Part shown: piece after piece, positions 8,850 to 32,052 of the stretch
Layout: every line of letters begins with the position of its first letter
Position numbering within the stretch: the stretch's first letter is position 1
DNA from: Clostridia bacterium
GTDB taxonomy: Bacteria; Bacillota; Clostridia; RGIG7378
Direction: 5' to 3'
NCBI GenBank assembly: GCA_045588325.1
Contig: JAZNEA010000057.1
Span: 1,089 to 65,088, forward strand
DNA: 64,000 bases
Notes under the pieces: model-generated
Told to the model about the DNA's origin: nothing
Seen by the model: the letters and a program-made list of their open reading frames with translations, nothing else
Database searches by the model: none
Program-made: the position numbers and the translations under genes

Positions 8850-10970
8850 ATGACTTATCGATCCATTCTAAAATCTCTTGCATTACTCATCATTTTTAGC
8901 ATGCTTATGTGTCCTGTTATTGGACAGGCAGCTACGGGTACCATCACAGGCAGTGACGTTAACCTTCGTCAAGGCGCTGGTACTAATTCAGCAGTTCTTA
9001 CCACTTTGGATAAGGGCGATGTTGTCAATGTTCTGAGTACACAGGGAGATTGGGTCAAGGTTACTTTTGGCAGTTATACAGGATACGTCTTTGGCACATA
9101 TGTTAAGACAACATCCGCAGGCACAGGTACTGTTACCGGAGATTATGTCAATCTCAGAGATGCAGCAGGTACCAACTCCAACGTTCTCACCTGCTTGAGG
9201 GCAGGCTCTAAGGTGGAGGTTATCGAGAAGACCGGCAACTGGTATAAGGTTCAGTATGGCAGTTACGTAGGATATATGTCTGCCAATTACATCAGCACAG
9301 GCGCAACGGTTACAACTCCTACTCCCACACCTACAGCAGCACCCACTGCCTCCCCCAACACAGGTACTAATGCGACACCTACAGCTGCACCTACAGCAGC
9401 ACCTACAGCTAAGCCTCAGGACGGCGCAGGCACAGGTATTCTCACAGGCGATTATGTCAACTTCCGCAAGGAGGCTAACAGCTCCAGCGCAGTTTTGGAT
9501 TGTCTGAGAGCAGGATCCAAGTTCACCGTATACGAGAAGGTGGGCAGCTGGCTCAAGATTAAGTACAACAACCAGACAGGATATATTTATGCATCCTACG
9601 TCAACGTTCAGTGGACAAATACATCCACTCCTGCACCTACACCAACCCCCTCTGGCAACCAGACCATCACTCTGGAAACAGGCACGGGCAAGGTTACAGG
9701 AGATGTGGTTAATGTAAGGTCTGGAGCAGGGACAAGCCACTCCGTAATTACATCCTATAAGTATGGCACAGAGGTTAAGGTCCTTGGAAAGTCTGGCGAG
9801 TGGTACAAGATTTCTAAGGGCAGCACTACAGGATATATGCATAGCGCATACGTTTCTGTTAAGTGGGACACAGTGACTGTCACACCTGCACCTACAGCAG
9901 CGCCAACAGCGACACCTACAACGGCACCTACAGCCACACCTACAACGGTACCCACAGAGCCTACACCTACACCTACGGCCACACCTACACCTACGGCCAC
10001 ACCGGTGCCTACACCTACGGTTAAGCCTACAGCAACTCCCAATCCCGATGCAGACTTTACTGTAAACGACAACGGAGTTATCGTACTGGACAAGGCATTG
10101 ACCGAGTATGTTTACGCCAAGATTAAGGTCACAGCTTCTGCTGTTAATGTCAGAGCCGGAGCGGGCACAAATTATGACGTTATCTATACTGTAACCAATG
10201 GCGATGAACTTATGCTCTTTGACATTGTTGGAGACTGGGCTCTTATAGCCTTTAACAATCAGTTTGGTTGGATCAGCAAGACGCTTACATCTGCGGCAGA
10301 TTGCCACAGACTTAAGATTACAGGATCTGACCTTAATGTCAGAGAGACCGTTCTCAGTGGCAAGGTTATCGGCCAGCTGCAGAAGGGCAACCTGGTATTG
10401 GGATGTCAGGTCAGCTACGGCTGGTACAATGTCATGAGCTATGATGGCAAGTACACTGGTGCCAAGAGTTGGATTTCTGGCAATTACACAACCAATGCAG
10501 ACGATGGTAAGATTATCAACGAGACAGTTCCCAAATATATCAGGGAGAACAACATTGTAACTGCAGAGGTAGTCAAGGAGACCGACAGAGACAAGATTAT
10601 CAATGCAGCAAAGCAGTACCTGGGAGTTCCCTATGTATACGGCGGACAGACCCCCAGTGGATTTGATTGCTCAGGTTACGTTTATTACGTATATCAGCAG
10701 GTTCTGGGCCTCGAGCTGGAGAGAGTTGCAGCCAGCCAGGCTACACAGGGAGTTCACAAGGTTCTCGCGGAGCTCCAGCCTGGAGACCTGGTGTTCTTTG
10801 ACACAGATGGTACAAGTAGCCACATCAACCATGTTGGTATCTACCTGGGAGACAACATGTTCATACACTCCTCATCAGGCAGTGGCAAGGTCGTTATCTC
10901 TCAGCTGTCCGGATTCTACTCCAGAACCTACATGACAGGCAGAAATATTATCGACTACATGGAGTATTAA
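8850..10970 (+). CDS. Secreted peptidoglycan endopeptidase with a signal peptide, five bacterial SH3 (SH3b) repeats separated by Pro/Thr-rich linkers, and a C-terminal NlpC/P60 domain
   Basis: The signal peptide is MTYRSILKSLALLIIFSMLMCPVIGQA. The GDxVNxRxGAGT...WxKV SH3b motif repeats five times. The NlpC/P60 catalytic Cys is in GFDCSGYVYYVY and the His in HVGIYLG. Confidence 0.85.
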   Translation: MTYRSILKSLALLIIFSMLMCPVIGQAATGTITGSDVNLRQGAGTNSAVLTTLDKGDVVNVLSTQGDWVKVTFGSYTGYVFGTYVKTTSAGTGTVTGDYVNLRDAAGTNSNVLTCLRAGSKVEVIEKTGNWYKVQYGSYVGYMSANYISTGATVTTPTPTPTAAPTASPNTGTNATPTAAPTAAPTAKPQDGAGTGILTGDYVNFRKEANSSSAVLDCLRAGSKFTVYEKVGSWLKIKYNNQTGYIYASYVNVQWTNTSTPAPTPTPSGNQTITLETGTGKVTGDVVNVRSGAGTSHSVITSYKYGTEVKVLGKSGEWYKISKGSTTGYMHSAYVSVKWDTVTVTPAPTAAPTATPTTAPTATPTTVPTEPTPTPTATPTPTATPVPTPTVKPTATPNPDADFTVNDNGVIVLDKALTEYVYAKIKVTASAVNVRAGAGTNYDVIYTVTNGDELMLFDIVGDWALIAFNNQFGWISKTLTSAADCHRLKITGSDLNVRETVLSGKVIGQLQKGNLVLGCQVSYGWYNVMSYDGKYTGAKSWISGNYTTNADDGKIINETVPKYIRENNIVTAEVVKETDRDKIINAAKQYLGVPYVYGGQTPSGFDCSGYVYYVYQQVLGLELERVAASQATQGVHKVLAELQPGDLVFFDTDGTSSHINHVGIYLGDNMFIHSSSGSGKVVISQLSGFYSRTYMTGRNIIDYMEY
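9889..10030 (+). repeat. Pro/Thr/Ala-rich tandem codon repeat (ACNCCNACN units) encoding linker [46 protein letters not shown] second tract lies at about 9300-9420.
   Basis: The low-complexity tandem repeat is visible in the DNA. Near-identical tracts recur in the genes at 12930-13000, 37200-37390 and 40200-40330. Confidence 0.8.
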
Positions 10971-11063: not shown

Positions 11064-13184
11064 ATGAAGAAGATATGTGTTATCACCGTTATTGTTTTGG
11101 CCGTGCTAGCTTTAGTATGCGGCGTATCCTTTGCTGACGAAAAGCCCACCTCTGGACAGTCAGGGGAAACTGTAACTTGGGTATACGATGAGGCCACTGC
11201 GACACTAACTTTTTCTGGAACGGGACCAACAGCACCTAGTTATGCTTCTGGACGACCTTGGGAAGTATGGAAGAATCAGGCAAAGCATATTGTGGTAGAA
11301 GAAGGAATAGATCAAATTCAATCCTCCTTTATTAAAGGATTTGAGAAGGTAGAGGATATATCTCTTCCTAGCACTTTAACATCTATAGGAGGTTCAGTCT
11401 TTGAGGGGTGTAAGAGCCTAAAATCCATAGTAATTCCAGAGGGTGTTACTTATTTGTCTCAACATGCATTTAAGGATTGTATTGCACTAGAAGACATAAA
11501 GTTGCCGGATTCTCTTTTGGAAGTAGAACCATATACTTTTGAGGGATGTACTTCTTTGCGTAGTATTGTTATCCCAGATAAGGTGAAAAAGGTAAGATTG
11601 ACCTGGTTTGCAGGTTGTACAAGCCTGATTTCCATAACATTTGGCGAAAGTGTACAGTCTATAAGGCATATGGACCAGGAGACACAGTATAGAATAAGGA
11701 CAATGATATTTAAGGGCAGTGCTCCAAATTTGGAGGAGTATACCTTGCATAGACTTACAGTAACGGTATATTGTCCAGCGGGGGACAGCTCATGGAATAA
11801 TTGGCCTGGAACAGAGCAATTCGATACAACAATCAAGCTTGTGCCAGTAAATGATCCGTCCAGCGTTGTTCCTAATTTGGATTTGAATATCTACTCAGGT
11901 TCTTGTGGACAAACGGCAAATTGGGAGTTAAAAAATGGTGTTTTAAAAATCACAGGAACAGGTAGCGTAACATCTTCTCCTTGGGATCCTGTCGCAGGTG
12001 AAGTGAAAAAGATTGTAATAGAAGATGGCATTACAGAAATTAATTGCAGTTCCGCTTTTGAACCATGCAAAAATGCAACGGAAGTGACCTTATCCAAGAA
12101 TTTAAAGAAATTGGGAGAGACTGCTTTCCAAGGATGTAACATCAAAACATTAACCATTCCTGGAAGCCTAAAGGTTATTCCTAAGAATGCGTTTAGTTAT
12201 TGCCATAAGTTGGAAAAGGTTGTAATTCAAGAAGGGGTAATTAGTATTGAAGACGATGCTTTTTCGAATTGTGAAAAGCTCACCTCTGTGGAAATGCCGG
12301 ATTCCTTGGAATCAATTGGAAAGAGAGTATTTTATAGATGCTCTGCAATGTCATCCCTGGTAATTCCCAAAAATGTTAAGTTCCTAGGGGAGGGATTCTT
12401 TCTGGGGATGAGTAGCCTAAAGGACATTTACTTTATGGGAGACAGGCCAGAGCATGAGCAGACGAACGTCTACGGATTCCAATCATTTACAATACATATT
12501 CCAAATTATTTGTCTTCTTGGAAGGGTGTTGGTGGAGCCTATGGAATAGCTCCAAATAGTGCAATGAGTGTTGTTAAGTACGATTGTACCCATTCTTGTG
12601 ATAAGTGGACCAATGCAGATGGTGACAAGCATACGGCCAAGTGTTCTAACTGCGGCCAAACCGTATCTGCATCACATACATGGACGGAAAAGAGCGTAGA
12701 CAAGACACCAACCTGCACAGAAGCAGGATCCAAGACAATGCAGTGCAAAACTTGTGGAGCAACAAAGGTTGAACCCATAGAGCCCACAGGTCACGCAGCA
12801 GACCGGTCTTTGAACTATCAGCAGAATGAGACCCACCACTGGAAGGACTGCCTAGTTTGTGGAGCCAAGGTAGACGAACAGGAGCACCAGGGAGCAGAGG
12901 AGTGCGAGGTGTGCAGGTATAAGCCAGAACCAACGCCTACACCGGAGCCCACCATAGCGCCTACACCGGAGTCAACGCCGGCACCAGAATCAACGGCAAA
13001 ACCGTCTGCCACTCCAATACCGGAGGCAGGAGACAAGGGCAATACTCCAACACCTGATCCAAGTCAGGACGTAGGAGATCCAAAGCCTGAGAAGAACGAA
13101 ATGCTATGGATAATCGTCGCTGCAGGAGTAGTCGTGGCAGGAGCGGCAGTTGCAGTGCCTATCCTGTTAAAGAGAAAGAAATAG
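11064..13184 (+). CDS. Cell-surface BspA-type leucine-rich-repeat (LRR_5) protein with a Cys-rich module, a Pro/Thr-rich stalk and a C-terminal TM anchor
   Basis: It has a signal peptide and many repeats of the ...FxxCxxLxxIxIPxxVxxIxxxAF... type. A C-x2-C-rich segment (CTHSCDKW...CSNCG...CKTCG...CLVCG...CEVC) precedes the PEPTPTPEPT stalk. The hydrophobic C-terminus ends KRKK. Confidence 0.75.
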   Translation: MKKICVITVIVLAVLALVCGVSFADEKPTSGQSGETVTWVYDEATATLTFSGTGPTAPSYASGRPWEVWKNQAKHIVVEEGIDQIQSSFIKGFEKVEDISLPSTLTSIGGSVFEGCKSLKSIVIPEGVTYLSQHAFKDCIALEDIKLPDSLLEVEPYTFEGCTSLRSIVIPDKVKKVRLTWFAGCTSLISITFGESVQSIRHMDQETQYRIRTMIFKGSAPNLEEYTLHRLTVTVYCPAGDSSWNNWPGTEQFDTTIKLVPVNDPSSVVPNLDLNIYSGSCGQTANWELKNGVLKITGTGSVTSSPWDPVAGEVKKIVIEDGITEINCSSAFEPCKNATEVTLSKNLKKLGETAFQGCNIKTLTIPGSLKVIPKNAFSYCHKLEKVVIQEGVISIEDDAFSNCEKLTSVEMPDSLESIGKRVFYRCSAMSSLVIPKNVKFLGEGFFLGMSSLKDIYFMGDRPEHEQTNVYGFQSFTIHIPNYLSSWKGVGGAYGIAPNSAMSVVKYDCTHSCDKWTNADGDKHTAKCSNCGQTVSASHTWTEKSVDKTPTCTEAGSKTMQCKTCGATKVEPIEPTGHAADRSLNYQQNETHHWKDCLVCGAKVDEQEHQGAEECEVCRYKPEPTPTPEPTIAPTPESTPAPESTAKPSATPIPEAGDKGNTPTPDPSQDVGDPKPEKNEMLWIIVAAGVVVAGAAVAVPILLKRKK

Positions 13185-13190
13185 CGCATA

Positions 13191-13225
13191 AACCACAGTG
13201 GGAAACTACTGTGGTTTTCTTTTTG
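13191..13225 (+). terminator. Rho-independent terminator after the LRR surface-protein gene
   Basis: CCACAGTGGGAAACTACTGTGG hairpin followed by TTTTCTTTTTG. Confidence 0.65.
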
Positions 13226-13306
13226 CCTGTTGCTTGTCGAAAATGGCCGTAAAGGGTCGGAATTTTTGTCTTGAGACTTTGCTTGTCGAAAGCCTAGAAT
13301 ACACCC

Positions 13307-15658
13307 ATGATCAAAACAGAGGAGTTTACAGGCAGAATCTTGGCCCTCGGATGTTGCGCATTTGTGGCAGGCGCAGCTACGTATGTGGACGGCAGTGCAT
13401 TTGGTGTACTGCTGCTTTTGGTATGCATAGGTATTTTCGCCTGCGGTGGCAGTAGGATTGAGACTAAAACCTGGCTTGTCCCCATGCTGTTTGTAACGCT
13501 GTTTTTGTTGGGATATCTCAGGATTTACACCAGCGACAACAGAGCCATTGGGACCATGCACGCCCTGGAGGGGCAGGATATTACTGCAGTGGCAATTGTG
13601 GAGCGAGAGTCCCAATACGGCTATTTGCTCCGAGTTGTGGAGGCGGATTGCGACATAATGGGCAGGCCTTATCTGGAGACTGAGCAGGAGCTGCGTCCCG
13701 GAGATGTTGTGAAGGTCCAAGGACAATGCCTGATGTACGACGGAGCGGAGAACCCAGGCGACTTTAGCTATATGAATTACATGAAATCCTGCGGTAATTT
13801 CTTTTTTATCCAGGGTGCCTGTCAGCCATATGCGGACTCCTTGATGTGGCACCACGTGTTGTTGGCCAGGTTATGCAGTTTGTTTGGCAATATTGGCAAC
13901 AGCGCCAGAGAACTTATTCAACGATTGTTTGGCGAAGATGCTCCCGTGATAATGGGGATGATCCTGGGCGACACAGATGCCATGCCCTACGGAGAGACCC
14001 AGATGTATAGACAGGCTGGCATTGGTCACTATTTTGCAGTCAGCGGTCTGCATATTGGCATGTTGGCCGGCGGAATCTCCTGGGCGTTCGGGTTAATTGG
14101 CCTTGGCAAAAAGGGAAAGGCCATTGCGGTGATGGTATCGGTGACTGTATTGTTGGCCCTTTGCGGTTTTACGCCCAGCAGTCTCAGGGCGGCCTTTATG
14201 TTGCTAATGTCGGCGGTGGCATATCTGGTCTATCGCCGCAGCGATGTTGTAACCACCGTATCCTTGTCGGCAGCCGTCTCTCTGTGCTTGACCCCCCATC
14301 TCATATACAATTCAGGCTTTATCCTGTCCCATGGTGCCATCATCTCCTTTGGGATTATAAACGCTAAGTTGGTTTCTCCCTTGATAAAAATGGCGGGACA
14401 GAGGCATCAAAAGGTATTGGAGACCTTGGCGGCTCCGCTGGTGTTCTGGTTAGTTACGGCCCCGGCTTCTGGTAGTATGTTTGGATCAGTGGCCACGTAT
14501 GGAGTCCTGTCAAATCTGGTGTGTTCGGGGCTGTTTTCCCTGGCCTTTGGCCTTGGATTGGCCTCACTGGCAGTGGGTGCCATGTGGTTCGATGCAGGTC
14601 AGGTGTTGGCCAGGAGCTGTAGCGCAGTGATTTCACTGGTTCGGAATATATGTAGCTGGATAACAAGCTTGCCAAATCCAGAGATAACGGGGATAAGTGC
14701 GTCCTTCCTGCTGTACGCGCTGCTGCTGTTGCCTGCGCTAGGCATCGGGCTGGCTCACTCAAGCCGTCATCGCCAGCGAGGGCCCTCCACCACACGCTGC
14801 ATCCGGGCCCTCCTGACCGCGCCAGTGGCCATCTGCGCCCTGATAGCTTTGGCGCAGGCTGCCACCACCCCCCTTGTGCAGGCCACCTACCTGTCTGTGG
14901 GCCAGGGCGACAGCACCGTGCTGCAGTTTGCCAACGGAGCCACCATGGTGGTGGACGGCTCCACAGAGTATTATGGCGACCGCCTGCTGGATTATCTGGA
15001 GCGGCGGGGCGTAGAGCATGTGGATGCACTGGTGCTTTCCCACGGTCATAGCGACCACGGGGGTGGCCTGCTGGGTGTGATGGGGTTGGTGCAGCGGGGC
15101 CAGCTGTCCCTGGGACGCCTGTATTTGTCGGGGGCGGACGAGACAGGACTGGCCCGGGCACTGGCCGATGCTGCTGCCACTGCAGGAGTGGATGTGGCCT
15201 GGTTGCATGCCGGAGATAGTTTTCAGGTGGGTGGCAACAGGGTGGATGTGATGTGGCCTGTGGCTGGGCATTCGTCCCTTAAGGAGGAGAACAATTATTC
15301 ATTGGTGCTGGCGTTGGAGGTTGGCCAGGACAGGTTTATTTTCACTGGCGATATTGAATCCAATGCAGAATCCTTTATAATTGACTATATGGATCCATGC
15401 TCGGTGCTTAAGGTTGCACACCACGGGTCCAACACGTCCTCTACGGCACCATTTTTGGAGGTGTTATCTCCTGAGATTTCACTTATTTCCGTAGGCAATA
15501 ACACATATGGACACCCCGCTCCGCAGGTTGTGGACAGGCTCACAGATGTGGGTAGCCTTGTTCATATTACCAGGAGAGATGGTGCGCTGATTGTTAGGTC
15601 TGATGGCAGGGGATGTAAGATTGTCAACTGGAAGGGTTTATGGGGATTAAGGAACTAA
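13307..15658 (+). CDS. comEC: DNA internalization-related competence protein ComEC/Rec2, with a ComEC channel domain and a C-terminal metallo-beta-lactamase domain
   Basis: It has a polytopic membrane N-terminus, a competence domain, and the MBL motif HGHSDHGGG followed by ...VAHHGSNTSST.... It is followed by holA, as in B. subtilis comEC-holA. Confidence 0.9.
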   Translation: MIKTEEFTGRILALGCCAFVAGAATYVDGSAFGVLLLLVCIGIFACGGSRIETKTWLVPMLFVTLFLLGYLRIYTSDNRAIGTMHALEGQDITAVAIVERESQYGYLLRVVEADCDIMGRPYLETEQELRPGDVVKVQGQCLMYDGAENPGDFSYMNYMKSCGNFFFIQGACQPYADSLMWHHVLLARLCSLFGNIGNSARELIQRLFGEDAPVIMGMILGDTDAMPYGETQMYRQAGIGHYFAVSGLHIGMLAGGISWAFGLIGLGKKGKAIAVMVSVTVLLALCGFTPSSLRAAFMLLMSAVAYLVYRRSDVVTTVSLSAAVSLCLTPHLIYNSGFILSHGAIISFGIINAKLVSPLIKMAGQRHQKVLETLAAPLVFWLVTAPASGSMFGSVATYGVLSNLVCSGLFSLAFGLGLASLAVGAMWFDAGQVLARSCSAVISLVRNICSWITSLPNPEITGISASFLLYALLLLPALGIGLAHSSRHRQRGPSTTRCIRALLTAPVAICALIALAQAATTPLVQATYLSVGQGDSTVLQFANGATMVVDGSTEYYGDRLLDYLERRGVEHVDALVLSHGHSDHGGGLLGVMGLVQRGQLSLGRLYLSGADETGLARALADAAATAGVDVAWLHAGDSFQVGGNRVDVMWPVAGHSSLKEENNYSLVLALEVGQDRFIFTGDIESNAESFIIDYMDPCSVLKVAHHGSNTSSTAPFLEVLSPEISLISVGNNTYGHPAPQVVDRLTDVGSLVHITRRDGALIVRSDGRGCKIVNWKGLWGLRN

Positions 15659-20021: not shown

Positions 20022-21422
20022 ATGATACCGTACGAAGGCAGGGAGCCATATATTTTCGTGAGTTATGCGCATAAGGATAGAGACATTGTCTTGTCCATAA
20101 TCGAGGCCATGTCTCAGCACGGATTTCGCATTTGGTATGATGCGGGCATAGAGGCCGGAACGGAGTGGCCTGAGTACATAGCTGAGCATCTGGAGAATGC
20201 AGCTGCGGTTATCGCGTTTCTGTCAGAATCCGCTTTGAGTTCTATTAACTGCCGTCAGGAGATTAATGAGGCCATCAATCAGAAAAAGGAGTTTCTGGCC
20301 ATTCACCTCCATGAGCTCACCATGACAGCAGGCATGCGTATGAGACTTAGCCTGATACAGGCAATGTTTATGTACCGACATACCAACATGGAGAGCTTTT
20401 ATAACTCTCTCTTCAATGCAAAGATTTTGAAACCATGCCTGAGTGAAATAGGACAAGTTGCTGAACAGCCAGTGACAGAGGTTGTACCTGAGACAAAAGC
20501 AGAGCCGGAGGCTTTGCCAGAATCCACCCCAGATGACTTTGTGATTAGTCAGGATGTGTTGATTTCATATAAGGGGAAAGGCGGTATTGTAGTCGTTCCT
20601 CAGGGAGTGAAAAGCCTTGGCTATGATATGATGGGGTATGGGTTGTGCGAAATAGCGACACCTGATTTTAAGAACGGATTCCAAAAAACCAATGAGATTA
20701 CAGAAGTTATTATTCCCGAAGGTGTAGAGGGTATTGGGTACAGAACCTTTGCTTATTGTGAGAATTTAGTCAGAGTTCACTTGCCAAAGAGCTTAAAATA
20801 CATAGATGACTTTGCTTTTTACAGATGTTTTGAGCTGCAGGAGGTAATTATCCCCCAGGATAGCCAGCTTGAGAGTATAGGCACAAGCGCCTTTGAGAAC
20901 TGTGCCAGTCTTACAAAGATGAGACTCCCAAAGAGAGTGACCTTTATTGGCAAGGATGCATTCAGGGCATGCAGGAGTTTGTCACATGTAAGTATCCCCT
21001 TGGATGCAAAGTTGGATAGGGTGCAGGAGGATACCTTTCACAACTGTTCGGGTCTTGAGGAGGTAACTCTTCCCAATAGCGTCGTAACTATTGAACCGAG
21101 AGCTTTTTATGGTTGCGAGTCCCTGTGGGACATAAACATACCTAATTCTTTGAAAGAGATCAAAGAGGCGGCATTCAAAAACTGCGAAAAGCTAGAATTA
21201 GTAGATTGTGGATGGCATAGTTCCCTGGAGAATATCGAAAAAGAGGCTTTCAGAGGATGCAGGTCATTGAAAACAATAAGTCTTTCGGATACCCTAAAGA
21301 CGATTGATGAGGATGCATTTGCAGAGTGTATGTCTTTGGCCAGTGCAGAGGTACCTAAGAAGACAAAAATGCCAGCGTTTAAGCAGGTATTCCCAAAGCA
21401 TACTGTTGTTAAGCGCACTTAG
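20022..21422 (+). CDS. Cytoplasmic TIR_2-domain protein fused to BspA-type leucine-rich repeats (TIR-LRR)
   Basis: The N-terminal ~130 aa (PYIFVSYAHKDRDIVLSIIEAMSQHGFRIWYDAGIEAGTEWPEYIAEHLENAAAVIAFLSESALSSINCRQEINEA) is a bacterial TIR_2 fold. There is no signal peptide. The C-terminal ~300 aa are LRR_5 repeats. A good RBS AATTGGAGGAAACATG precedes the start. Confidence 0.8.
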   Translation: MIPYEGREPYIFVSYAHKDRDIVLSIIEAMSQHGFRIWYDAGIEAGTEWPEYIAEHLENAAAVIAFLSESALSSINCRQEINEAINQKKEFLAIHLHELTMTAGMRMRLSLIQAMFMYRHTNMESFYNSLFNAKILKPCLSEIGQVAEQPVTEVVPETKAEPEALPESTPDDFVISQDVLISYKGKGGIVVVPQGVKSLGYDMMGYGLCEIATPDFKNGFQKTNEITEVIIPEGVEGIGYRTFAYCENLVRVHLPKSLKYIDDFAFYRCFELQEVIIPQDSQLESIGTSAFENCASLTKMRLPKRVTFIGKDAFRACRSLSHVSIPLDAKLDRVQEDTFHNCSGLEEVTLPNSVVTIEPRAFYGCESLWDINIPNSLKEIKEAAFKNCEKLELVDCGWHSSLENIEKEAFRGCRSLKTISLSDTLKTIDEDAFAECMSLASAEVPKKTKMPAFKQVFPKHTVVKRT

Positions 21423-23545: not shown

Positions 23546-26173
23546 ATGGCAAACAAGTATTGTTACCTCTTTACAGAGGGCGACGCCAGCATGAGAGAGC
23601 TGCTGGGCGGCAAGGGTGCTAACCTGGCCGAGATGACCAAGATTGGTCTCCCTGTACCTCAGGGATTCACAATCTCCACAGAGGCATGTACTCAGTATTA
23701 CGAGGATGGCCGTCAGATCAACCCCGCAATTCAGGCAGAGATCAATGACTACATCGGCAAGATGGAGGAGATTACAGGCAAGAAGTTCGGAGACCTGGAG
23801 AATCCTCTGCTGGTTTCTGTACGTTCCGGTGCTCGCGCATCCATGCCTGGTATGATGGATACAATTTTGAACCTGGGTCTTAATGAGCAGGTTGTAGAGG
23901 TTATGGCCAGAAAGTCTGGCAATGCTCGTTGGGCATATGACTGCTACAGAAGATTCATCCAGATGTATTCCGACGTTGTTATGGAGGTGGGCAAAAAGTA
24001 TTTCGAGGAGCTCACCGACAAGATGAAGGAAGAGAAGGGCGTTAAGCTGGACGTTGAACTTACAGCAGACGACCTTAAGGAACTGGCAAACCAGTTCAAG
24101 GCAGAGTACAAGGCCAAGATCGGACAGGACTTCCCTTCCGATCCCAGAGAGCAGCTCATGGGTGCTGTTAAGGCCGTATTCCGCAGCTGGGACAACCCCC
24201 GTGCTAACGTATACCGTCGTGACAACGATATCCCTTATTCTTGGGGTACAGCCGTTAACGTTCAGGCCATGGCATTTGGTAACATGGGCGATGACTGCGG
24301 TACTGGCGTAGCATTCACCAGAGATCCCGCCACAGGTGAGAAGAAGCTCATGGGCGAGTTCCTGACAAATGCTCAGGGTGAGGACGTTGTAGCTGGTGTT
24401 CGTACACCAATGCCCATCGCACAGATGGCAGACAAGTTCCCCAAGGCATTTGAGCAGTTCCAGAACGTATGTCAGATTTTGGAGAACCACTACCACGACA
24501 TGCAGGATATGGAGTTCACCATTGAGAATGAGAAGCTCTACATGCTGCAGACACGTAATGGTAAGAGAACAGCACAGGCAGCTCTCCAGATTGCAGTTGA
24601 CCTGGTAGCTGAGGGCCACAAGACCAAGGAGGAGGCAGTCCTCATGATCGACCCTCGTAACTTGGACACATTGCTCCACCCTCAGTTTGACGTAAAGGCT
24701 CTTAAGGCCTCTACTCCTATGGGCAAGGGCTTGGGAGCATCTCCCGGAGCCGCATGCGGACAGGTTGTATTCTCCGCAGAGGATGCAGAGGTTTGGAACA
24801 ACGCAGGCAAGAAGGTTATCCTCGTTCGTCTCGAGACATCTCCCGAGGATATTACAGGTATGAAGGCAGCTCAGGGTATCCTGACAGTTCGTGGTGGTAT
24901 GACATCCCACGCAGCTGTTGTTGCCCGCGGTATGGGTAAGTGCTGTGTTTCCGGTTGTGAGAAGATTGTCATGGACGAGGAGAACAAGCAGTTCTCTTTG
25001 GCAGGCAAGACATTCCACGAGGGAGACTACATCTCCATCGATGGTTCTACAGGTAACATCTACGATGGCGTTATCCCAACAGTAGATGCTGAGATCTCCG
25101 GCAACTTTGGCACTATCATGGGCTGGGCTGACGAGTTCCGCACACTTAAGGTCAGAACAAATGCAGATACACCTACAGATGCTAAGAAGGCTCGTGAGCT
25201 GGGCGCAGAGGGTATCGGTCTTTGCCGTACAGAGCACATGTTCTTTGAGGCAGAGAGAATTGCTGCTTTCCGTGAGATGATTTGCTCCGACACAGCAGAG
25301 GAGAGAGAGGTTGCTCTCGCTAAGATCCTGCCTTATCAGCAGTCCGACTTCGAGCCACTGTATGAGGCACTGGAGGGAACTCCTGTTTGCATCCGTTTCC
25401 TGGATCCACCACTCCACGAGTTCGTACCCACAGAGGACGCAGACATCGAGGCATTGGCTAAGGCTCAGGGCAAGGAAGTTGACGAGATTAGGGCAATTAT
25501 CACATCTCTCCATGAGTTCAACCCCATGATGGGACACCGTGGATGCCGTCTGGCAGTAACATATCCCGAGATTGCCAAGATGCAGACAGCTGCAGTTATC
25601 CGCGCAGCTATCAACGTACAGAAGAAGCATCCTGAGTGGAAGGTTCGTCCCGAGATTATGATTCCTCTGGTAGGCGACGTTAAGGAGCTCAAGTTTGTTA
25701 AGAACGTAGTTACAGCAACTGCAGATGCTGAGATTGCAGCAGCAGGCGTTGAGCTGGACTATGAGGTTGGTACAATGATCGAGATCCCCAGAGCATGTCT
25801 CACAGCTGATGAAATCGCAGCTAACGCAGACTTCTTCTGCTTTGGTACAAACGACCTTACTCAGATGACATACGGCTTCTCCCGTGACGATGCAGGTAAG
25901 TTCTTGAATGCCTACTACGATGGCAAGATCTTTGAGAACGATCCCTTTGCTAAGCTGGACCAGACAGGTGTTGGCAGGCTGATGAACATGGCAATTTCCT
26001 TGGGTAGACCAGTTAACCCCAACTTGCACGTAGGTATCTGCGGCGAGCACGGCGGTGATCCTACATCCGTTGAGTTCTGCCACCAGTTGGGTCTGGATTA
26101 CGTATCCTGCTCACCTTACAGAGTTCCGATTGCAAGACTTGCAGCAGCACAGGCTGCTATAAAGAGCAAGTAA
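23546..26173 (+). CDS. ppdK: Pyruvate, phosphate dikinase
   Basis: It is 876 aa, with the phospho-His domain (...GGMTSHAAVVARGMGKCCVSGC...) and a PEP-utilising TIM barrel (...NDLTQMTYGFSRDD...). Confidence 0.95.
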   Translation: MANKYCYLFTEGDASMRELLGGKGANLAEMTKIGLPVPQGFTISTEACTQYYEDGRQINPAIQAEINDYIGKMEEITGKKFGDLENPLLVSVRSGARASMPGMMDTILNLGLNEQVVEVMARKSGNARWAYDCYRRFIQMYSDVVMEVGKKYFEELTDKMKEEKGVKLDVELTADDLKELANQFKAEYKAKIGQDFPSDPREQLMGAVKAVFRSWDNPRANVYRRDNDIPYSWGTAVNVQAMAFGNMGDDCGTGVAFTRDPATGEKKLMGEFLTNAQGEDVVAGVRTPMPIAQMADKFPKAFEQFQNVCQILENHYHDMQDMEFTIENEKLYMLQTRNGKRTAQAALQIAVDLVAEGHKTKEEAVLMIDPRNLDTLLHPQFDVKALKASTPMGKGLGASPGAACGQVVFSAEDAEVWNNAGKKVILVRLETSPEDITGMKAAQGILTVRGGMTSHAAVVARGMGKCCVSGCEKIVMDEENKQFSLAGKTFHEGDYISIDGSTGNIYDGVIPTVDAEISGNFGTIMGWADEFRTLKVRTNADTPTDAKKARELGAEGIGLCRTEHMFFEAERIAAFREMICSDTAEEREVALAKILPYQQSDFEPLYEALEGTPVCIRFLDPPLHEFVPTEDADIEALAKAQGKEVDEIRAIITSLHEFNPMMGHRGCRLAVTYPEIAKMQTAAVIRAAINVQKKHPEWKVRPEIMIPLVGDVKELKFVKNVVTATADAEIAAAGVELDYEVGTMIEIPRACLTADEIAANADFFCFGTNDLTQMTYGFSRDDAGKFLNAYYDGKIFENDPFAKLDQTGVGRLMNMAISLGRPVNPNLHVGICGEHGGDPTSVEFCHQLGLDYVSCSPYRVPIARLAAAQAAIKSK

Positions 26174-26463
26174 TTGAGCCAACATGTTTTTTAGGAACAT
26201 TTGAGATCCCAAAGGATTTCATGAGGAAGAGCGGAAAGCTATATTATGGCGAACACCGTGCCTTCCGGTTCCCGGAAAAGCTTGAATTTAAGTTATTTCT
26301 AGTATAGGGAGTCTGTTAAAGACCCCCTATATTTTTTTATCAAAAATATAAGGTGCTATAAACGGATTAGTATATATGAATCTGTTGTTTGCATTTTTTT
26401 GAAGCGTTCGAGGTATTTTAACAAGAAAATTTCCCGAGCGCTTTTTTGCGTTTGGGGCAAAAG

Positions 26464-26479
26464 CGGAAACATGTTTCCG
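26464..26479 (+). promoter_or_regulatory. Perfect 16-bp palindrome CGGAAACATGTTTCCG just upstream of the XRE gene's RBS. It is a candidate operator.
   Basis: The palindrome is self-complementary and about 20 nt upstream of the TTG start. Confidence 0.4.
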
Positions 26480-26498
26480 GTTGAAGGAGGTTTAAAAA

Positions 26499-26834
26499 TT
26501 GTCGAGTTTTACAGCAAAAATGATAAAAGAGGCAAGGATTAATGCTAATCTGTCACAAGAAGAAGCAGCAAAAGCGTTAGGTATTACAGACCGAACTCTA
26601 AGGTCATTTGAAAACAATCAGCATCCGGTTTCGGTTGATGATTTATTGAATATGGCTAAGCTTTATAAAACGGACGTAAGGGAGTTCATCCTAGAAAACT
26701 ATGTTGAGGAAAAAGAAGAGCAGATTCTATGTAATCGGTATGGTTCTTTCCTAAAATTATATGATCAGCTATCGGATAGAGACAAGGAAGATGTAGTTTG
26801 GGTAATCAAGCAAAGAATCAATGGCACAATATAA
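26499..26834 (+). CDS. XRE-family helix-turn-helix transcriptional regulator
   Basis: The HTH_3 motif is ...LSQEEAAKALGITDRTLRSFENNQHPVSVDDLLNMAKLY.... It has a TTG start with an AAGGAGG RBS. Confidence 0.7.
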   Translation: MSSFTAKMIKEARINANLSQEEAAKALGITDRTLRSFENNQHPVSVDDLLNMAKLYKTDVREFILENYVEEKEEQILCNRYGSFLKLYDQLSDRDKEDVVWVIKQRINGTI

Positions 26835-26870
26835 ATATATGCTAATAGCATATACCAAAATGTGATAGAA

Positions 26871-26897
26871 TAAGCATATGCATTACGCATATGCTTA
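26871..26897 (+). terminator. Inverted repeat TAAGCATATGC-ATTAC-GCATATGCTTA followed by a T-rich tract. It is a terminator and/or operator between the XRE gene and the 421-aa gene.
   Basis: 11-bp perfect arms followed by TTTGTT. Confidence 0.45.
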
Positions 26898-26924
26898 TTT
26901 GTTATATACGAGATTATATGTTGA

Positions 26925-28190
26925 GTGTATGCTTATATCAAGCAAGTGATATGGAGGTGTCTTTCGATGTATAGAACAGAGGAAAGCAGCAAAATAGGTG
27001 AATATATTGGAAAGTTGATTGCTAGAAAGTATGGTAAGGATCGTCAGTTTGCAATTGAATATATAAAGTTAAGAGATGGGATAGATGAAGAGCCGGCCCT
27101 AGACGAAATTCAACGTGTAGCAAACAAAATATGTCAGATGAAAAAGATCGGAAAGGGAATACAGATTAATGATTTGCCAATTCTCTCAGAGTTATTGGAA
27201 GTTTCTGTTGATAGTATTCTCAGTGCTGGAAAGGTAGCCAAGCCAGCTCCTACCAGGACGACAAATTATTCTGTAGCTTTTTCCAAAGATAAAAAGATTT
27301 GGAAGGAATATATTGAGAGACCGGATAAACTAATTCTAAATGAGGACGAGTACGGAAAGACAGTTATTGATTATGCGATTGAGTTCGGAAATTATGGTTT
27401 ACTGAAATATTTGATTGATAACGATTATATTTATTTGATTGATGAGGATCAGCAAAAATATTGGGGAACATTTGGTTCAGGTACAACCATAGAAAGAAGA
27501 CCGCCTTTTGAATACGATTTGCTTGAATATAAGATGAAACAGAATGATAGCCTGAGAACAAGTATTATAGCTTTGGCCTTAGAGAATAAAGATTATGGGA
27601 TTCTTGATGAAGCAAAGGCGAGAGAAATACCTTCCCTATATGAAGCATCTTATTTCTATGGCACAGCTCTGGATGTTAAGAAGTATTACAATCAGCAGTT
27701 TATGGATCAGGTTGCCAGGGCATCGGATGAGGTGTTGGTCTACTTCTCATCAGAATTTGAGATAGAAACTAATAGGAAAGCTTTATGCAGATTGACTTTC
27801 CCTTATTTAGGAAAGCTGATTGATATGGCAATTAAGGCCAATAGAAAAGCTACAGCAACTATGTTAAAGAATGCTTCGAAGCATAACCAAGATGTGTTAA
27901 AGGAACTGAAAAAGATTGGCAAAGCTGCTGAAGATTCATTTTCTAGTATTCGACAGTATATGGATGAAAAATCTCTTATGGAAGGAATAATGCAGGATTA
28001 TCATTTTTACGAAGAGAATGATACAGTGTGCTTTCATTCGGGGATAAATTCAGCCGGGAACTTCCAGGGATTATTCTCGACTGTTGTACGAGTAAGTGTT
28101 TCATCTAAGGATGAATATATTAAATCTTTGATTGATGATGTTAATCGTTCATATAATCAGGTTAAGGATTTTGTTTACAAGGAGGTTTGA
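26925..28190 (+). CDS. Hypothetical protein with a split XRE-like HTH at the N-terminus and a ~330-aa helical C-terminal domain, reminiscent of RNPP/Rgg-type peptide-sensing regulators
   Basis: The N-terminus has ...IGEYIGKLIARKYGKDRQFAIEY...KIGKGIQINDLPILSELLEVSVDSIL, an HTH_XRE-like pattern, and the remainder is alpha-helical. The true start may be the ATG at about 26967 (MYRTEE...). Confidence 0.5.
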   Translation: MYAYIKQVIWRCLSMYRTEESSKIGEYIGKLIARKYGKDRQFAIEYIKLRDGIDEEPALDEIQRVANKICQMKKIGKGIQINDLPILSELLEVSVDSILSAGKVAKPAPTRTTNYSVAFSKDKKIWKEYIERPDKLILNEDEYGKTVIDYAIEFGNYGLLKYLIDNDYIYLIDEDQQKYWGTFGSGTTIERRPPFEYDLLEYKMKQNDSLRTSIIALALENKDYGILDEAKAREIPSLYEASYFYGTALDVKKYYNQQFMDQVARASDEVLVYFSSEFEIETNRKALCRLTFPYLGKLIDMAIKANRKATATMLKNASKHNQDVLKELKKIGKAAEDSFSSIRQYMDEKSLMEGIMQDYHFYEENDTVCFHSGINSAGNFQGLFSTVVRVSVSSKDEYIKSLIDDVNRSYNQVKDFVYKEV

Positions 28191-28193
28191 TTT

Positions 28194-28367
28194 ATGTGTA
28201 AGAGCTTTATGGATATGGAAGACGGAGATTTTTGTTTTACTACATCTGACAATATGGCAATGGACTCTGAGGGGCATATGATGATGCGTATGGGTGATAA
28301 CATGGCTATGGATATGGACTCGGGTGAATTACATATGGTTTCTTCATGGGATGACGATGATGAATAG
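28194..28367 (+). CDS. Small Met/Asp-rich acidic peptide (57 aa) not present in the ORF track: MCKSFMDMEDGDFCFTTSDNMAMDSEGHMMMRMGDNMAMDMDSGELHMVSSWDDDDE
   Basis: An ATG sits 3 nt after the upstream stop. There is an unusual run of MxM/MMM motifs, and no signal peptide. Confidence 0.3.
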   Translation: MCKSFMDMEDGDFCFTTSDNMAMDSEGHMMMRMGDNMAMDMDSGELHMVSSWDDDDE

Positions 28368-28388
28368 GTGATTTCTTTTGAATTTTCG

Positions 28389-28444
28389 TTGACGCATACG
28401 GAATCCGTGTACATAATAAAGGTAGGTATATACGAAATCCGTAT
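28389..28444 (+). promoter_or_regulatory. Promoter (TTGACG, 17 nt, CATAAT) with two near-palindromic operator-like sites, TACGGAATCCGTGTA in the spacer and TACGAAATCCGTATA at about +15
   Basis: Two copies of a TACGNAATCCGTRTA dyad spaced about 33 bp apart, immediately upstream of the HTH gene at 28459. Confidence 0.5.
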
Positions 28445-28458
28445 ACAGGAGGTGCAAG

Positions 28459-28731
28459 ATGAAAGACTTAGAGTATATCGTAAACGGAATCATTGTTGAA
28501 GATGAGAATAAGGCAGAGCAAGATGAAGCCAGAAAGAAAAGAATGCTTGCATCTGCTTTTGTAATGGTAAGAAACAAGACCGGTATGAATCGCAAAGAGT
28601 TTGCTGCATGGCTAGGAATACCTTATCGAACAATGCAGGATTGGGAACTCGGCAACTCACAGGTCCCTGAATATGTTCTTAGACTCGTTGCCTATAAGGT
28701 AATGATTGAAAAGGAAAGGGGGAACATATAA
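28459..28731 (+). CDS. Small helix-turn-helix DNA-binding protein (90 aa)
   Basis: ...MNRKEFAAWLGIPYRTMQDWELGNSQ... is an HTH of the XRE/Cro type. It is translationally coupled (ATGA) to the downstream membrane protein. Confidence 0.6.
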   Translation: MKDLEYIVNGIIVEDENKAEQDEARKKRMLASAFVMVRNKTGMNRKEFAAWLGIPYRTMQDWELGNSQVPEYVLRLVAYKVMIEKERGNI

Positions 28732-29036
28732 TGAGAATACTAAAAGCGATTTTGATGGCACCAGTTAGAGTGATCGTATTTTTTATCCAGCTTGTATTAA
28801 CGTTGGGTGTAGCTATATTTGGCGCAGCCGGTGGCATTGTTACAAAGGCTGGAGAAATAGTAGGAGGCCTTTTGATTTTAGGATGCCTTCTTTGTGTTGC
28901 ATCCGGACAGATTTCTGGAGATATCTTTTTAAAGATGTTCCTTGGTGGAGTTGCATTCGGAGCAATCCCTGCTGCTGTTACAAAGCTTGGTGAAGAGGGA
29001 ATTTTTGCTATTAAAGGTATCATAGGAAGAATTTAG
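28731..29036 (+). CDS. Small glycine-zipper membrane protein (101 aa, 3 predicted TM helices)
   Basis: It has hydrophobic GxxxG-rich segments (GVAIFGAAGGIV; GGLLILGCLLCVASG; GGVAFGAIPAAV). Confidence 0.5.
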   Translation: MRILKAILMAPVRVIVFFIQLVLTLGVAIFGAAGGIVTKAGEIVGGLLILGCLLCVASGQISGDIFLKMFLGGVAFGAIPAAVTKLGEEGIFAIKGIIGRI

Positions 29037-29046
29037 AAGAAAAGAG

Positions 29047-29079
29047 AATGCTTAGAGGCCAGTTCCATCAATTTGGAAT
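29047..29079 (+). terminator. Rho-independent terminator after the membrane-protein gene (GGCCAGTTCCA...TTGGAATTGGCC + TTTTT)
   Basis: A ~12-bp stem with one mismatch, followed by a T-run. Confidence 0.55.
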
Positions 29080-29162
29080 TGGCCTTTTTCAATATTGTAC
29101 TTTATTGAAAAAAGAGTTTGACAATCTCCTTCAATATTGTATAATGGTCTTGACCAATAATG
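29080..29162 (+). promoter_or_regulatory. Sigma-A promoter (TTGACA, 16 nt, TATAAT) embedded in three related operator-like sites. Two are CAATATTGTA half-palindromes and one is a perfect 18-bp palindrome CAATAATGTACATTATTG.
   Basis: Near-consensus -35 and -10 hexamers. The repeated dyad overlaps the -10 and the +1, as expected for an autorepressed RHH/HTH operator. Confidence 0.55.
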
Positions 29163-29188
29163 TACATTATTGAAGGAGATTGAAACAG

Positions 29189-29557
29189 ATGCATAATTTA
29201 GCATTACATTTAACTGATGTTCAATATGGCGAATTATTTGTAAAATCGCAAATTGAGGGATTATCCATAGACGCTTATATAAAAAAGACACTTTTCGAAA
29301 CCGATCCGGGAATATTCACTCCTAAAGAGGCTATCAGAAGAGCTATGGAAAAATATGACATAGGGGAATATTTTGAGCTTAGGGATCTATATTCAGATGA
29401 AGAATGGTCAAGTATGGAGCGCGGAGAAAGAATTGCTTTTGGACGAAACTTTTTTTCTTTTACCAGTGTCATTGAACCAGGAAAAGTAAAACTTGTTCAA
29501 GATACGGGAAATAATGGTAGAAGAGCAAAGTACGAATTATTAAAGAAGAAAATGTAG
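29189..29557 (+). CDS. Hypothetical protein with an N-terminal ribbon-helix-helix (CopG/Arc/ParD-like) DNA-binding domain and a ~70-aa C-terminal extension
   Basis: NLALHLTDVQYGELFVKSQIEGLSIDAYIKKTLF fits the RHH beta-alpha-alpha pattern. An AAGGAG RBS lies upstream. Confidence 0.45.
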   Translation: MHNLALHLTDVQYGELFVKSQIEGLSIDAYIKKTLFETDPGIFTPKEAIRRAMEKYDIGEYFELRDLYSDEEWSSMERGERIAFGRNFFSFTSVIEPGKVKLVQDTGNNGRRAKYELLKKKM

Positions 29558-29587
29558 AGAGGAGCCTTTGTTAGGAGGGGATGCTTC

Positions 29588-30025
29588 ATGACAACAAGAG
29601 AATTGAAAGAAAAGCTTAAAAACTCTCAGGAGACATATCCAGTATCAAGTGCATATGATGCAACTCATGGTCAAAGGAAAGGTGTTCATTGGAACAATCA
29701 AAAGGAACACCTTTTGCCGTGGCTTGATGCACAGGAGACTCATGGTTATGGTGGGTTTACTAGATTAAATATCAATACGGATGCCGAAAGAATGTACAAT
29801 CATCTGTCGTGTCCAGAATGTCTTTTATGGTTATGCGAAGCTTCTGGAGTGCCTTATGATGTTGTTAATGCGGCAGCTGAAAAAGCAAAGCTTCATGAAA
29901 AAGTAGTTTCCAGAGCAGCTTCAATTCGTAGAGATATACCGTGGAGTGAGGTAGAGAATAGGCTTAATATACCAATAGAGAGAACAAACACTTGCTTGGC
30001 TTTGCAAACACGTCACAATGTGTAA
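29588..30025 (+). CDS. Hypothetical protein (145 aa), with no recognisable domain
   Basis: The ORF has a GGAGGGGATGCTTCATG RBS context. It has island-type AT-rich codon usage. Confidence 0.45.
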   Translation: MTTRELKEKLKNSQETYPVSSAYDATHGQRKGVHWNNQKEHLLPWLDAQETHGYGGFTRLNINTDAERMYNHLSCPECLLWLCEASGVPYDVVNAAAEKAKLHEKVVSRAASIRRDIPWSEVENRLNIPIERTNTCLALQTRHNV

Positions 30026-30125
30026 TCGTATGTTTCTGGAAAAGCGGTAGCATTTCTTCCTTTTGCCCTATTTGGGAGTTTGATCGAGAAAAAAAGGTTG
30101 GGAAATCAGTTATAACGAACAACGC

Positions 30126-30518
30126 ATGAAGAAGAATCCAATTATTCAGAACCTCCATTTTTCGGACAAAACAGACGAATTTAAGGAAATACTTTTGGAT
30201 ATAGGAAAGTTTGCAACAGCAATAGAACAGCCCTATTTTGCAGATGTTTTTCGTAATGCATACGAGTCTTTGTGCGGTTCAGAAACTATCGAAGACGACA
30301 ATATTCCCAAACAACTCCCCAACGAGTTCAAATCTATATATTATGCGGTAGATAAAGCCGATGTGTTTGGTGCTATGGGGTCTTGGAACGATTCGCCGCC
30401 TTATTATGCGCACCAAAAAGGATTGGATAAGGAATATAATGAGTTATCAAACGGTCTGCTTGTTCAAATACGCTATCATTTGATGTATGTTACCAATGAG
30501 TGTTGGAAAAGAGATTGA
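30126..30518 (+). CDS. Hypothetical protein (130 aa), possibly an orphan immunity-type protein
   Basis: A small soluble protein in an array of unrelated small ORFs next to an RHS-CT cassette. Confidence 0.4.
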   Translation: MKKNPIIQNLHFSDKTDEFKEILLDIGKFATAIEQPYFADVFRNAYESLCGSETIEDDNIPKQLPNEFKSIYYAVDKADVFGAMGSWNDSPPYYAHQKGLDKEYNELSNGLLVQIRYHLMYVTNECWKRD

Positions 30519-30705
30519 GTACCATCTCCATCTTTGCGTGCAACAACTATTAAGAGCAAATAATAGGACAAGCTTAATAGACAAATTAAATCTCCCTACT
30601 GAGAAAGCGGTGGGGAGATTTTGCTTTTGTTGAATTATCAGAGTTCTTATATTATGCTTATGGTGTAGAGCAGATAAAGGTGTGTTCCTGAGTTGGAGTA
30701 GATAT

Positions 30706-31191: not shown

Positions 31192-31251
31192 CTAAGTATA
31201 TTGTTATCTTTTTGTAAAATGATATATTTTTTATGTAAGGAGGATTGTTTT

Positions 31252-31911: not shown

Positions 31912-32052
31912 AGTGCCATGGCAAAATTAGGACGTATTCTTAAAGGATCTTCTAATTCATGACGTTTTCCAGGCCCCGCTCTTTGGTTTGCACAAATCAA
32001 AGAGCGGGGTCAAATATATGGAGGAAAATATGAAAATATATTCTATTAAGAA

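Follow-up and report, generated by a model that had tools for sequence, protein, structure and literature searches.

A GC-rich segment inside comEC of a Clostridia bacterium: possible mosaic origin and alternatives

Why would half a kilobase of an otherwise unremarkable gene differ so strongly in base composition from everything around it? We examined this question for comEC in a stretch of 64,000 nucleotides from a Clostridia bacterium (contig JAZNEA010000057.1), which we refer to as the window. The first-pass annotation had suggested a recent patch, derived by gene conversion or transformation from a donor of high GC content.

An intact comEC gene with an abrupt change in composition

The comEC/rec2 gene lies at 13307–15658 on the forward strand and encodes an intact protein of 783 amino acids, as judged from the list of open reading frames, a Pfam scan, and syntenic comEC-holA-recJ orthologues. 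The Pfam scan found the DUF4131/OB-fold region at residues 31–161 (PF13567; E = 6.5e-8, above the curated cut-off), the Competence integral-membrane domain at residues 218–478 (PF03772; E = 1e-35), and the C-terminal metallo-beta-lactamase domain at residues 531–730 (Lactamase_B, PF00753; E = 2e-15). This is the full architecture of the ComEC/Rec2 family, and the comEC-holA-recJ neighborhood is conserved as well. We found no difference from other ComEC/Rec2 proteins at the level of the family; the odd feature is the DNA composition of one segment. Whichever way that segment arose, this ComEC is an ordinary, intact protein.

A maximum-likelihood segmentation of comEC plus holA, with two breakpoints, placed the segment (the patch) at 14716–15213 on the forward strand (LLR 22). 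The patch is 66.7% GC, versus 50.7% outside it in the segmented region (binomial p = 7e-13), 50.5% in the remainder of comEC, and 47.7% in the whole window. The somewhat wider interval that was proposed originally, 14700–15270, is 65.3% GC, versus 50.5% for the rest of comEC and 47.6% for the rest of the window. Both windowed GC and the segmentation thus bear out the sharp shift that had been seen by eye, and its left edge is abrupt. The patch is also the most GC-rich 498-nt stretch of the window (mean 47.7%, standard deviation 5.6%, z = 3.4); the runner-up elsewhere, at 43289, is 57.6% GC. Across 1062 sliding windows of 166 codons from 31 open reading frames, the patch is extreme for overall GC (0.665 versus a maximum of 0.572), for GC3 (0.747 versus 0.693), and for GC1 (0.747 versus 0.657). 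GC is elevated at all three codon positions, and a comparison to the flanks gave a GC3 of 0.73 for the patch and 0.52–0.60 for the flanks.

The patch encodes residues 470–636. According to Pfam, these run from the last residues of the Competence domain through the linker to about the middle of the metallo-beta-lactamase domain. This agrees with the first-pass annotation, which had assigned the tract to the last part of the channel domain and the beginning of the metallo-beta-lactamase domain and had quoted its peptide correctly. The sequence and an alignment of orthologues locate the metal-binding motif HGHSDH (HxHxDH type) of the metallo-beta-lactamase domain within the patch, at 15041–15058 on the forward strand.

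The codon usage of the patch is foreign to the host. If the same protein segment were encoded with the host's codon usage, its expected GC content would be 0.577 instead of the observed 0.663 (z = 6.4), and none of 5000 such simulations exceeded 0.62. About half of the GC excess is due to synonymous codon choices that are atypical of the host. The flanks, holA, and recJ are all within 0.02 of the GC content expected from codon usage. The arginine codons are CGN in 11 of 11 cases, versus 301 CGN and 476 AGR codons elsewhere in the window (61% AGR in the host; Fisher p = 3.4e-5). Arginine codons of the AGG type, at 14612 and 15239, bracket the patch.

The encoded amino acids are shifted as well. 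There are no lysine codons among the 166 residues of the patch, versus at least one (mean 8.6) in every other 166-codon window. The fraction of GARP residues is 0.37 and that of FYMINK residues is 0.08, versus 0.25–0.30 and 0.17–0.26 in orthologues of low or intermediate GC content. Such a shift might reflect selection on the sequence itself. The protein may have adapted, giving a lysine-free outer part of ComEC that is rich in alanine, glycine, and arginine, or the mRNA or DNA may have to meet a need of its own, for instance a structure, paused translation, an element embedded in it, or a gene on the opposite strand. Also, the dN/dS of the patch (0.24) is slightly above that of the flanks (0.14–0.17). 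The sense frame of the patch is under purifying selection, and the range of dN/dS across the gene (0.14–0.24) suggests that comEC is functional. Half of the GC excess is synonymous, sites that are otherwise conserved show no surplus of replacements specific to the window, and amino-acid changes specific to the window are no faster in the patch. Shuffled controls fold as well as the RNA of the patch (z = 0.20), and a search of the patch against Rfam gave no match even at E ≤ 1.

Two long antisense open reading frames overlap the patch on the reverse strand, at 14454–15161 (235 amino acids) and 14759–15271 (170 amino acids). Neither matches a Pfam family, and both are interrupted in the sibling strain described below (L053), where the first is split into frames of 102 and 72 amino acids and the second is reduced to 116. 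Their coordinates had been reported accurately, and they are, as had been supposed, spurious by-products of GC richness: they stay open because stop codons are scarce in GC-rich DNA. The purifying selection on the sense frame (dN/dS 0.24) also speaks against the longer of the two. From the Rfam, folding, and Pfam results and the broken frames in the sibling, we reject a structured RNA, a riboswitch, or an antisense gene. Overall, we consider it very unlikely that selection on the sequence itself explains the patch.

A sibling strain shares the patch

The window apparently comes from a metagenome-assembled contig, and its protein (P0001) has been seen on just one NCBI contig, of 65 kb, which raised the concern that the patch is an artefact of assembly or binning, with sequences of two populations from one metagenome joined into a chimera. 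But the patch is also present in Logan assemblies from two other sequencing runs (L053 and L054), in the same frame and with the same boundaries, and the strain that these represent is ~6% different over the full locus. Its presence in independent assemblies rules out an assembly chimera, and we give an artefact of any such kind almost no weight.

Within the patch, nucleotide identity to L053 and L054 is 94.6%, close to the baseline of 93.9%. Because the patch is shared with a relative at ~94% nucleotide identity and has diverged to the baseline level, the event is old, and the suggestion of a recent mosaic event does not hold. In unpolarised counts from two close sequences, with no near outgroup, AT→GC and GC→AT differences number 11 versus 12.

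The comparison to the sibling revealed a second feature of the gene. Just upstream of the patch, at 13958–14653 on the forward strand, the window and L053 have 3 differences in 696 nucleotides, where 41 would be expected (Poisson P = 2e-14), and dS is 0.036, as compared to 0.105–0.137 elsewhere. The GC content of this tract is ordinary (0.52–0.55). From its near-identity, we take it to be a recent intragenic recombination tract. A near-identical tract of 0.7 kb in this position indicates that recombination tracts of about the size of the patch occur in comEC.

Import from a relative or a local rise in GC content

To see if the patch might be a property of the family, we compared it to other ComEC genes. 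In the clades of orthologues that are closest (L001 and L002, with 56–59% amino-acid identity), the GC content at the homologous columns is 0.41–0.48. Across 8 other ComEC genes, from about 6 lineages, the difference in GC content between the region equivalent to the patch and the remainder of the gene is just +0.004 ± 0.031, versus +0.14 here. These comparisons refute a lineage-wide constraint on composition, which the first-pass annotation had named as the alternative to a mosaic. The patch is absent from the closest orthologues, and the nearest lineage that lacks it is only 56–59% identical in protein sequence. As compared to L001, homologous codons have been replaced, with no insertions or deletions beyond a variable linker.

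Loci from this family range from 42 to 59% GC. The patch has GC1/GC2/GC3 of.75/.51/.73, and the same columns in family members of 57–59% GC have.69–.71/.48–.52/.73–.76. Since these relatives already match the composition of the patch, there is no need for a donor at 65–70% GC, and a composition that would suit a donor is available in the family. Also, because the patch has the equilibrium composition of relatives with ~58–60% GC, it gives no readable signal of amelioration and no means of dating the event.

Our preferred explanation, to which we assign a probability of roughly one half, is that the patch is an old mosaic, formed by homologous recombination with an unsampled relative of higher GC content from the same clade. 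In an ancestor, the homologous segment of this relative would have taken the place of ~0.5 kb of comEC, with the frame preserved; or, a longer import might have been trimmed later by recombination with native alleles. The donor's genome would be roughly 58% GC or above. The chimeric comEC would have kept its function and become fixed before the split from the ~94%-identical sibling, and the patch would have been diverging at an ordinary rate since then. A recombination patch of this type is an ordinary kind of event. On the other hand, one would expect homologous recombination to work very poorly between sequences whose compositions are so far apart.

We searched extensively for the donor. A search with the whole protein against 5.8e9 clusters did not find it. 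When we compared the patch alone to 1.84e9 representative proteins with an exhaustive HMMER search, we recovered the relatives already known from the whole protein, ranked alike (P0002 at 59% identity, P0005 at 47%, P0008 at 46%, and all others at 49% or below), and not the different, higher-GC taxon that had been anticipated. We also scanned GTDB genomes, JGI metagenomes, IMG/VR, plasmids, and phages and found no donor there. Comparing the patch peptide to a database of 90% clusters was uninformative, as it returned short stand-alone metallo-beta-lactamase proteins and missed the self-match. Similarly, the scan of genome contigs was swamped by the generic motif HGHSDHGG, and its matches were proteins of ~270–330 amino acids with a metallo-beta-lactamase domain only. 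A scan of metagenome contigs with this motif removed and a second scan of JGI metagenomes with clade-specific N-terminal motifs both gave nothing; the clade seems to be absent from the JGI metagenomes. Any donor must have been an unsampled, higher-GC member of the recipient's own clade.

The patch has no repeat copy in the 64-kb window, which rules out intragenomic conversion from a second copy there. Nor did we find signs of a mobile element or island: besides the lack of a repeat copy in the window, there was no phage or plasmid match, and the patch replaces homologous codons.

The phylogenetic signal of the patch is like that of its surroundings. Identity to L001 is 0.58 in the patch and 0.58 in the left flank, and the order of the relatives is unchanged. 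Tests of site patterns gave p > 0.13, and we found no incongruence, although with the nearest outgroup at 58% amino-acid identity, a donor that branches from the window's own lineage would escape such a comparison. Synonymous divergence from L001 and L002 is saturated in both patch and flanks (dS > 3 or undefined). The proposal of recombination with a high-GC donor survives in part. The sharp shift, the foreign codons, and the restriction to part of the family favor it, while the missing donor, the lack of incongruence, and the lack of extra protein divergence do not. We infer import as the cause, and likewise the identity of the donor and its GC content.

Alternatively, the GC content may have risen in place, if a local and persistent GC-biased process (biased gene conversion where comEC is prone to recombination, or a local mutational bias) shifted the GC equilibrium of 0.5 kb of comEC upwards, in which case no foreign donor would be involved. 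The unchanged phylogenetic position, the ordinary protein divergence, and the failure to find a donor in very large databases speak for this. Also, a sister clade (L003, L055, and L005) has its own, independent GC-rich tract in the neighboring part of comEC (the ~0.5 kb directly upstream; 0.63–0.68 versus 0.49–0.52), and two other relatives (L006 and L057) show a mild rise of 8 points across the union of both regions. In all of these, the GC-raised region of comEC is the most GC-rich segment of the locus. This hints at a recurring process that is specific to the region instead of a single accident. (We considered if the tract in the sister clade is a clear import, but its low identity to other clades is not diagnostic, since any two clades compared in this fast-evolving region give low identity.)

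Recombination is active in comEC, as seen at 13958–14653, and, set beside GC-biased gene conversion, the patch has a high GC content, at synonymous sites as well, in a gene with intragenic recombination, but the recombined tract itself has normal GC. Lassalle et al. (2015; PMC4450053) reported that across bacterial clades, the GC content of genes is positively related to the evidence for intragenic recombination. As reported there, this is a statistical tendency at the level of genes, whereas the patch, in one lineage, is 0.5 kb long, sharp-edged, and 15 points richer in GC.

Several observations argue against a rise in place. The tract in comEC that demonstrably recombined has ordinary GC content, the two closest orthologue clades lack the rise at the columns of the patch, and the window contains a single tract of this type in 64 kb. 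The complete switch from AGR to CGN goes beyond even the 59%-GC members of the family: L006 uses AGR at conserved arginine positions and has 8 CGN and 4 AGR codons in this region. Furthermore, we know of no bacterial mechanism that would raise GC by 15 points within 0.5 kb and leave an abrupt edge. We view a rise in place as possible but doubtful.

In a more specific form of this idea, which we think is unlikely, the part of comEC where the channel domain gives way to the nuclease domain would be a long-lived hotspot of a local GC-biased process, such as conversion tied to frequent recombination. It would have acted on different sub-segments in each clade: 14716–15213 here, the adjoining ~0.5 kb upstream in L003, L055, and L005, and more mildly on both in L006 and L057. 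If real, such a hotspot would explain why there is no incongruence and why the donor is missing.

Relation to known mosaic genes

Mosaic genes that arose by interspecies homologous recombination include pbp2x, pbp1a, and pbp2b of Streptococcus pneumoniae and penA of Neisseria. As in those genes, the comEC patch is an internal, in-frame, collinear block, within the range of a few hundred bases to a few kilobases, whose character differs from the rest of a native and functional gene. There are no mobility genes at its edges, and the same gene has a further recombination tract (13958–14653). But in the classical mosaics, the donors are known, phylogenetic incongruence is clear, and divergence is raised in blocks. 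Here, we found no donor, tree position and protein divergence are as in the flanks, and the signal is purely compositional. Also, no selective agent comparable to an antibiotic is apparent for the comEC patch.

The framework of Lawrence and Ochman considers horizontally acquired DNA of atypical composition and its amelioration. The patch resembles such DNA in that its GC content and codon usage depart from the host's at all three codon positions. It differs in being smaller than a gene (0.5 kb), in replacing homologous codons instead of adding a gene or island, and in showing no signal of amelioration.

If the GC content rose in place, and did so recurrently, then comEC would be an unusually strong and localised case of GC-biased conversion in bacteria. 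If the patch was imported, then it is another example of sub-genic mosaicism, and it would matter mainly for methods: where sampling is sparse, detection by composition can pick up exchanges to which phylogeny is blind. Import would also imply that these uncultured Clostridia, which according to the sample names are from the ruminant gut, swap tracts of 0.5–1 kb of core genes across very different base compositions.

A GC-rich tract within comEC

The comEC gene (13307–15658, + strand) is a 783-codon ORF with the full ComEC architecture in Pfam: DUF4131 (aa 31–161), Competence (aa 218–478), and metallo-beta-lactamase (aa 531–730). It is followed by holA and recJ, and the order comEC, holA, recJ is the same in all of the comEC relatives. 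The first-pass annotation described a GC-rich patch in this gene, and the shift in composition is real: 14700–15270 is 65.3% GC, as compared to 50.5% for the rest of comEC and 47.6% for the rest of the window. A maximum-likelihood two-breakpoint fit placed the edges at 14716–15213 (66.7% vs. 50.7% GC; LLR 22; binomial p = 7e-13). No other 0.5-kb stretch of the 64 kb is as GC-rich (z = 3.4); the next best, at 43289, has 57.6%. In a set of 1062 sliding 166-codon windows drawn from 31 ORFs, the patch is extreme for GC, GC1, and GC3, and only the patch lacks any lysine codon. It encodes aa 470–636, beginning near the end of the channel domain, crossing the linker, and taking in the first half of the nuclease-type domain with its HGHSDH motif (15041–15058).

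The amino acid composition of the patch is skewed (GARP 0.37, FYMINK 0.08). Given its protein sequence and host codon usage, we would expect 57.7% GC, but the observed value is 66.3% (z = 6.4), and 62% was not exceeded in any of 5000 simulations. The excess is therefore split about equally between the shift in amino acids and synonymous choice. The comEC flanks, holA, and recJ are all within 2 points of the host-codon expectation. Arginine codons are the clearest marker of the synonymous shift: all 11 in the patch are CGN, while the rest of the window has 476 AGR and 301 CGN (Fisher p = 3.4e-5). At conserved arginine positions the orthologues have AGR, even in L006, a GC-richer relative (59% GC). 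AGG codons bracket the patch, with the last upstream at 14612 and the first downstream at 15239.

Two antisense ORFs across the patch had been attributed to its GC richness, and we agree: neither belongs to a Pfam family, and in L053, a locus from a sibling lineage, they are interrupted or shortened, so they are by-products of stop-codon poverty. We also considered a structured RNA, but folding was no better than for shuffled controls (z = 0.20) and Rfam gave no match even at E ≤ 1. Selection on the sequence itself seems improbable as the origin of the patch. The patch occurs only once in the 64-kb window.

Elsewhere, GC falls to 32–43% at ~26000–35000 (about 50% on either side), where most ORFs have no Pfam family. 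This low-GC island, possibly an acquired one with toxin or defence functions, includes an RHS-repeat fragment ORF (32427–33380), and a TIR-domain ORF comes after it (35100–36083). Just two RNA genes were detected in the window, those for the bacterial small SRP RNA (1934–2033) and tRNA-Ala(CGC) (58820–58895).

Age of the patch

The 90% cluster of the window's ComEC has a second member, P0126 (95% amino acid identity), whose gene lies on L053 and L054, Logan assemblies from two further sequencing runs. This gene is collinear with the window's comEC (96.1% identical) and carries the same patch (0.60–0.69 GC) with the same edges, which makes an assembly or binning artefact exceedingly improbable. 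The window and the sibling lineage are 93.9% identical across 9 kb, with 5.4 differences per 100 nt inside the patch and 5.9 in the 4.4 kb downstream. Similarly, dS is 0.123 in the patch and 0.105–0.137 in the flanks, and the patch has dN/dS of 0.24. These comparisons show that the patch was already in the ancestor of both lineages and has since diverged at the ordinary rate under purifying selection. A recent origin, as first proposed, does not fit.

Recombination on the scale of the patch does take place in comEC: a different part of the gene bears the mark of a recent intragenic exchange, over ~0.7 kb. At 13958–14653, the window and L053 have 3 differences in 696 nt, instead of ~41 expected (P = 2e-14; dS 0.036). 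This near-identical tract has ordinary GC (0.52–0.55) and stops 60–140 nt upstream of the patch.

Upstream of comEC, at 8850–10970 and 11064–13184, are two surface-type proteins of 706 aa each, one with five SH3 domains and NlpC/P60, the other with BspA-type LRRs. In each, the repeat linkers are Thr/Pro-rich and make up repeat families together with 37197–37382. The region shared with L053 fails to align only at 11226–12568, which spans the LRR protein's N-terminal two-thirds. At 20022–21422 is a gene for a protein that has BspA-type leucine-rich repeats and, at its N terminus, a TIR domain, which also gives a weaker ThsB-like TIR match; L053 has the same gene (12716–14116).

Orthologues and the search for a donor

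We compared the patch to syntenic loci from four further clades. The window's ComEC is 59% and 56% identical to its nearest orthologues, from L001 and L002 (locus GC 42–43%); 45–48% identical to those of the sister clade, L003/L004, L055, and L005 (50–53%); and 39% identical to those of the GC-richer L006 and L057 (57–59%). The homologous columns in L001 and L002 are 0.41–0.48 GC. Relative to the rest of the gene, the patch-equivalent differs by +0.004 ± 0.031 GC in 8 other ComEC genes and by +0.14 in the window and L053. The patch is thus not a lineage-wide constraint, although the nearest patch-free lineage is very distant.

The first-pass annotation put the tract at about 65–70% GC by eye and envisaged a patch from a high-GC donor. 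The compositional observation stands and the interpretation is supported in part, but the main test for a foreign donor failed. An exhaustive search with the patch peptide alone, against 1.84 billion representatives, found P0002 (59% identity), P0005 (47%), P0008 (46%), and the fragment P0137 (44%); the other listed matches were shorter, with at most 49% identity and far lower scores. The relatives and their order are the same as for the whole protein. The patch is as similar to L001 as the left flank is (0.58 for both), relatives rank alike for patch and flank, and a 5-residue insertion in the patch (VQRGQ/ALDGK) is shared by L001 and L002 only. Site-pattern tests gave no sign that affinity shifts to any of the other clades (p > 0.13), and there was no excess over the flanks of window-specific replacements at otherwise conserved sites. 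Nothing closer was found in GTDB genomes, JGI metagenomes, IMG/VR, plasmids, or phages, though the power of some scans was low. Motif-based scans with HGHSDHGG are saturated by stand-alone metallo-beta-lactamase proteins: nearly all of the GTDB matches (L008–L052) are of this type, with 260–480 aa (mostly ~270–330 aa), and some are labelled ComEC by their sources though they are not full-length.

If the patch was imported, its donor belonged to an unsampled lineage within the window's clade, not to a high-GC taxon from a different phylum. At the patch's columns, L006 and L057 have GC1/GC2/GC3 of.69–.71/.48–.52/.73–.76, vs..75/.51/.73 for the patch, so a genome near 58–60% GC would suffice as donor and one of 65–70% is not needed; such compositions, near 58–60%, exist within this family. 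The CGN bias of the patch (11 of 11) goes a little beyond that of L006, which has 8 CGN and 4 AGR over this region.

Replacement or a local process

Our preferred explanation, to which we give a probability of about 0.5, is an old in-frame homologous replacement of this comEC segment, whose source would be an unsampled higher-GC relative of the same clade. The patch would have arisen in the way that mosaic pbp/penA genes do. Neither a donor nor phylogenetic incongruence was found for it, so we do not class it as a proven case of that kind.

A local GC-biased process acting in place is a less likely alternative. In every locus of the L003 clade, whole-locus segmentation found the GC-richest segment inside comEC, at nt ~1080–1630 (0.63–0.68 GC vs. 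0.49–0.52 for the locus): L003 5116–5630, L004 2396–2910, L055 2276–2615, and L005 1861–2390. This tract lies directly upstream of the equivalent of the window's patch, abutting it. It is common to lineages that are dS 0.5–0.75 apart, has dN/dS of 0.44 (0.15 in the flanks), and lies where between-clade identity is only 0.1–0.3. L006 (1906–2855) and L057 (1981–3260) show a milder rise (+8 points) over the union of both regions, and L001 and L002 show none across them. These two adjoining clade-specific tracts might reflect recurrent import into the part of ComEC under least constraint, or else a GC-biased process specific to the region. GC/AT differences are 11 vs. 12, unpolarised since only two close sequences are available, and synonymous sites are saturated relative to the outgroups.

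As it stands, the patch is a small, well-defined curiosity of an already known kind. One hypothesis would, if true, raise the value of the finding: that this region of comEC is a hotspot on which a local GC-biased process has acted over the long term, in sub-segments that differ between clades.
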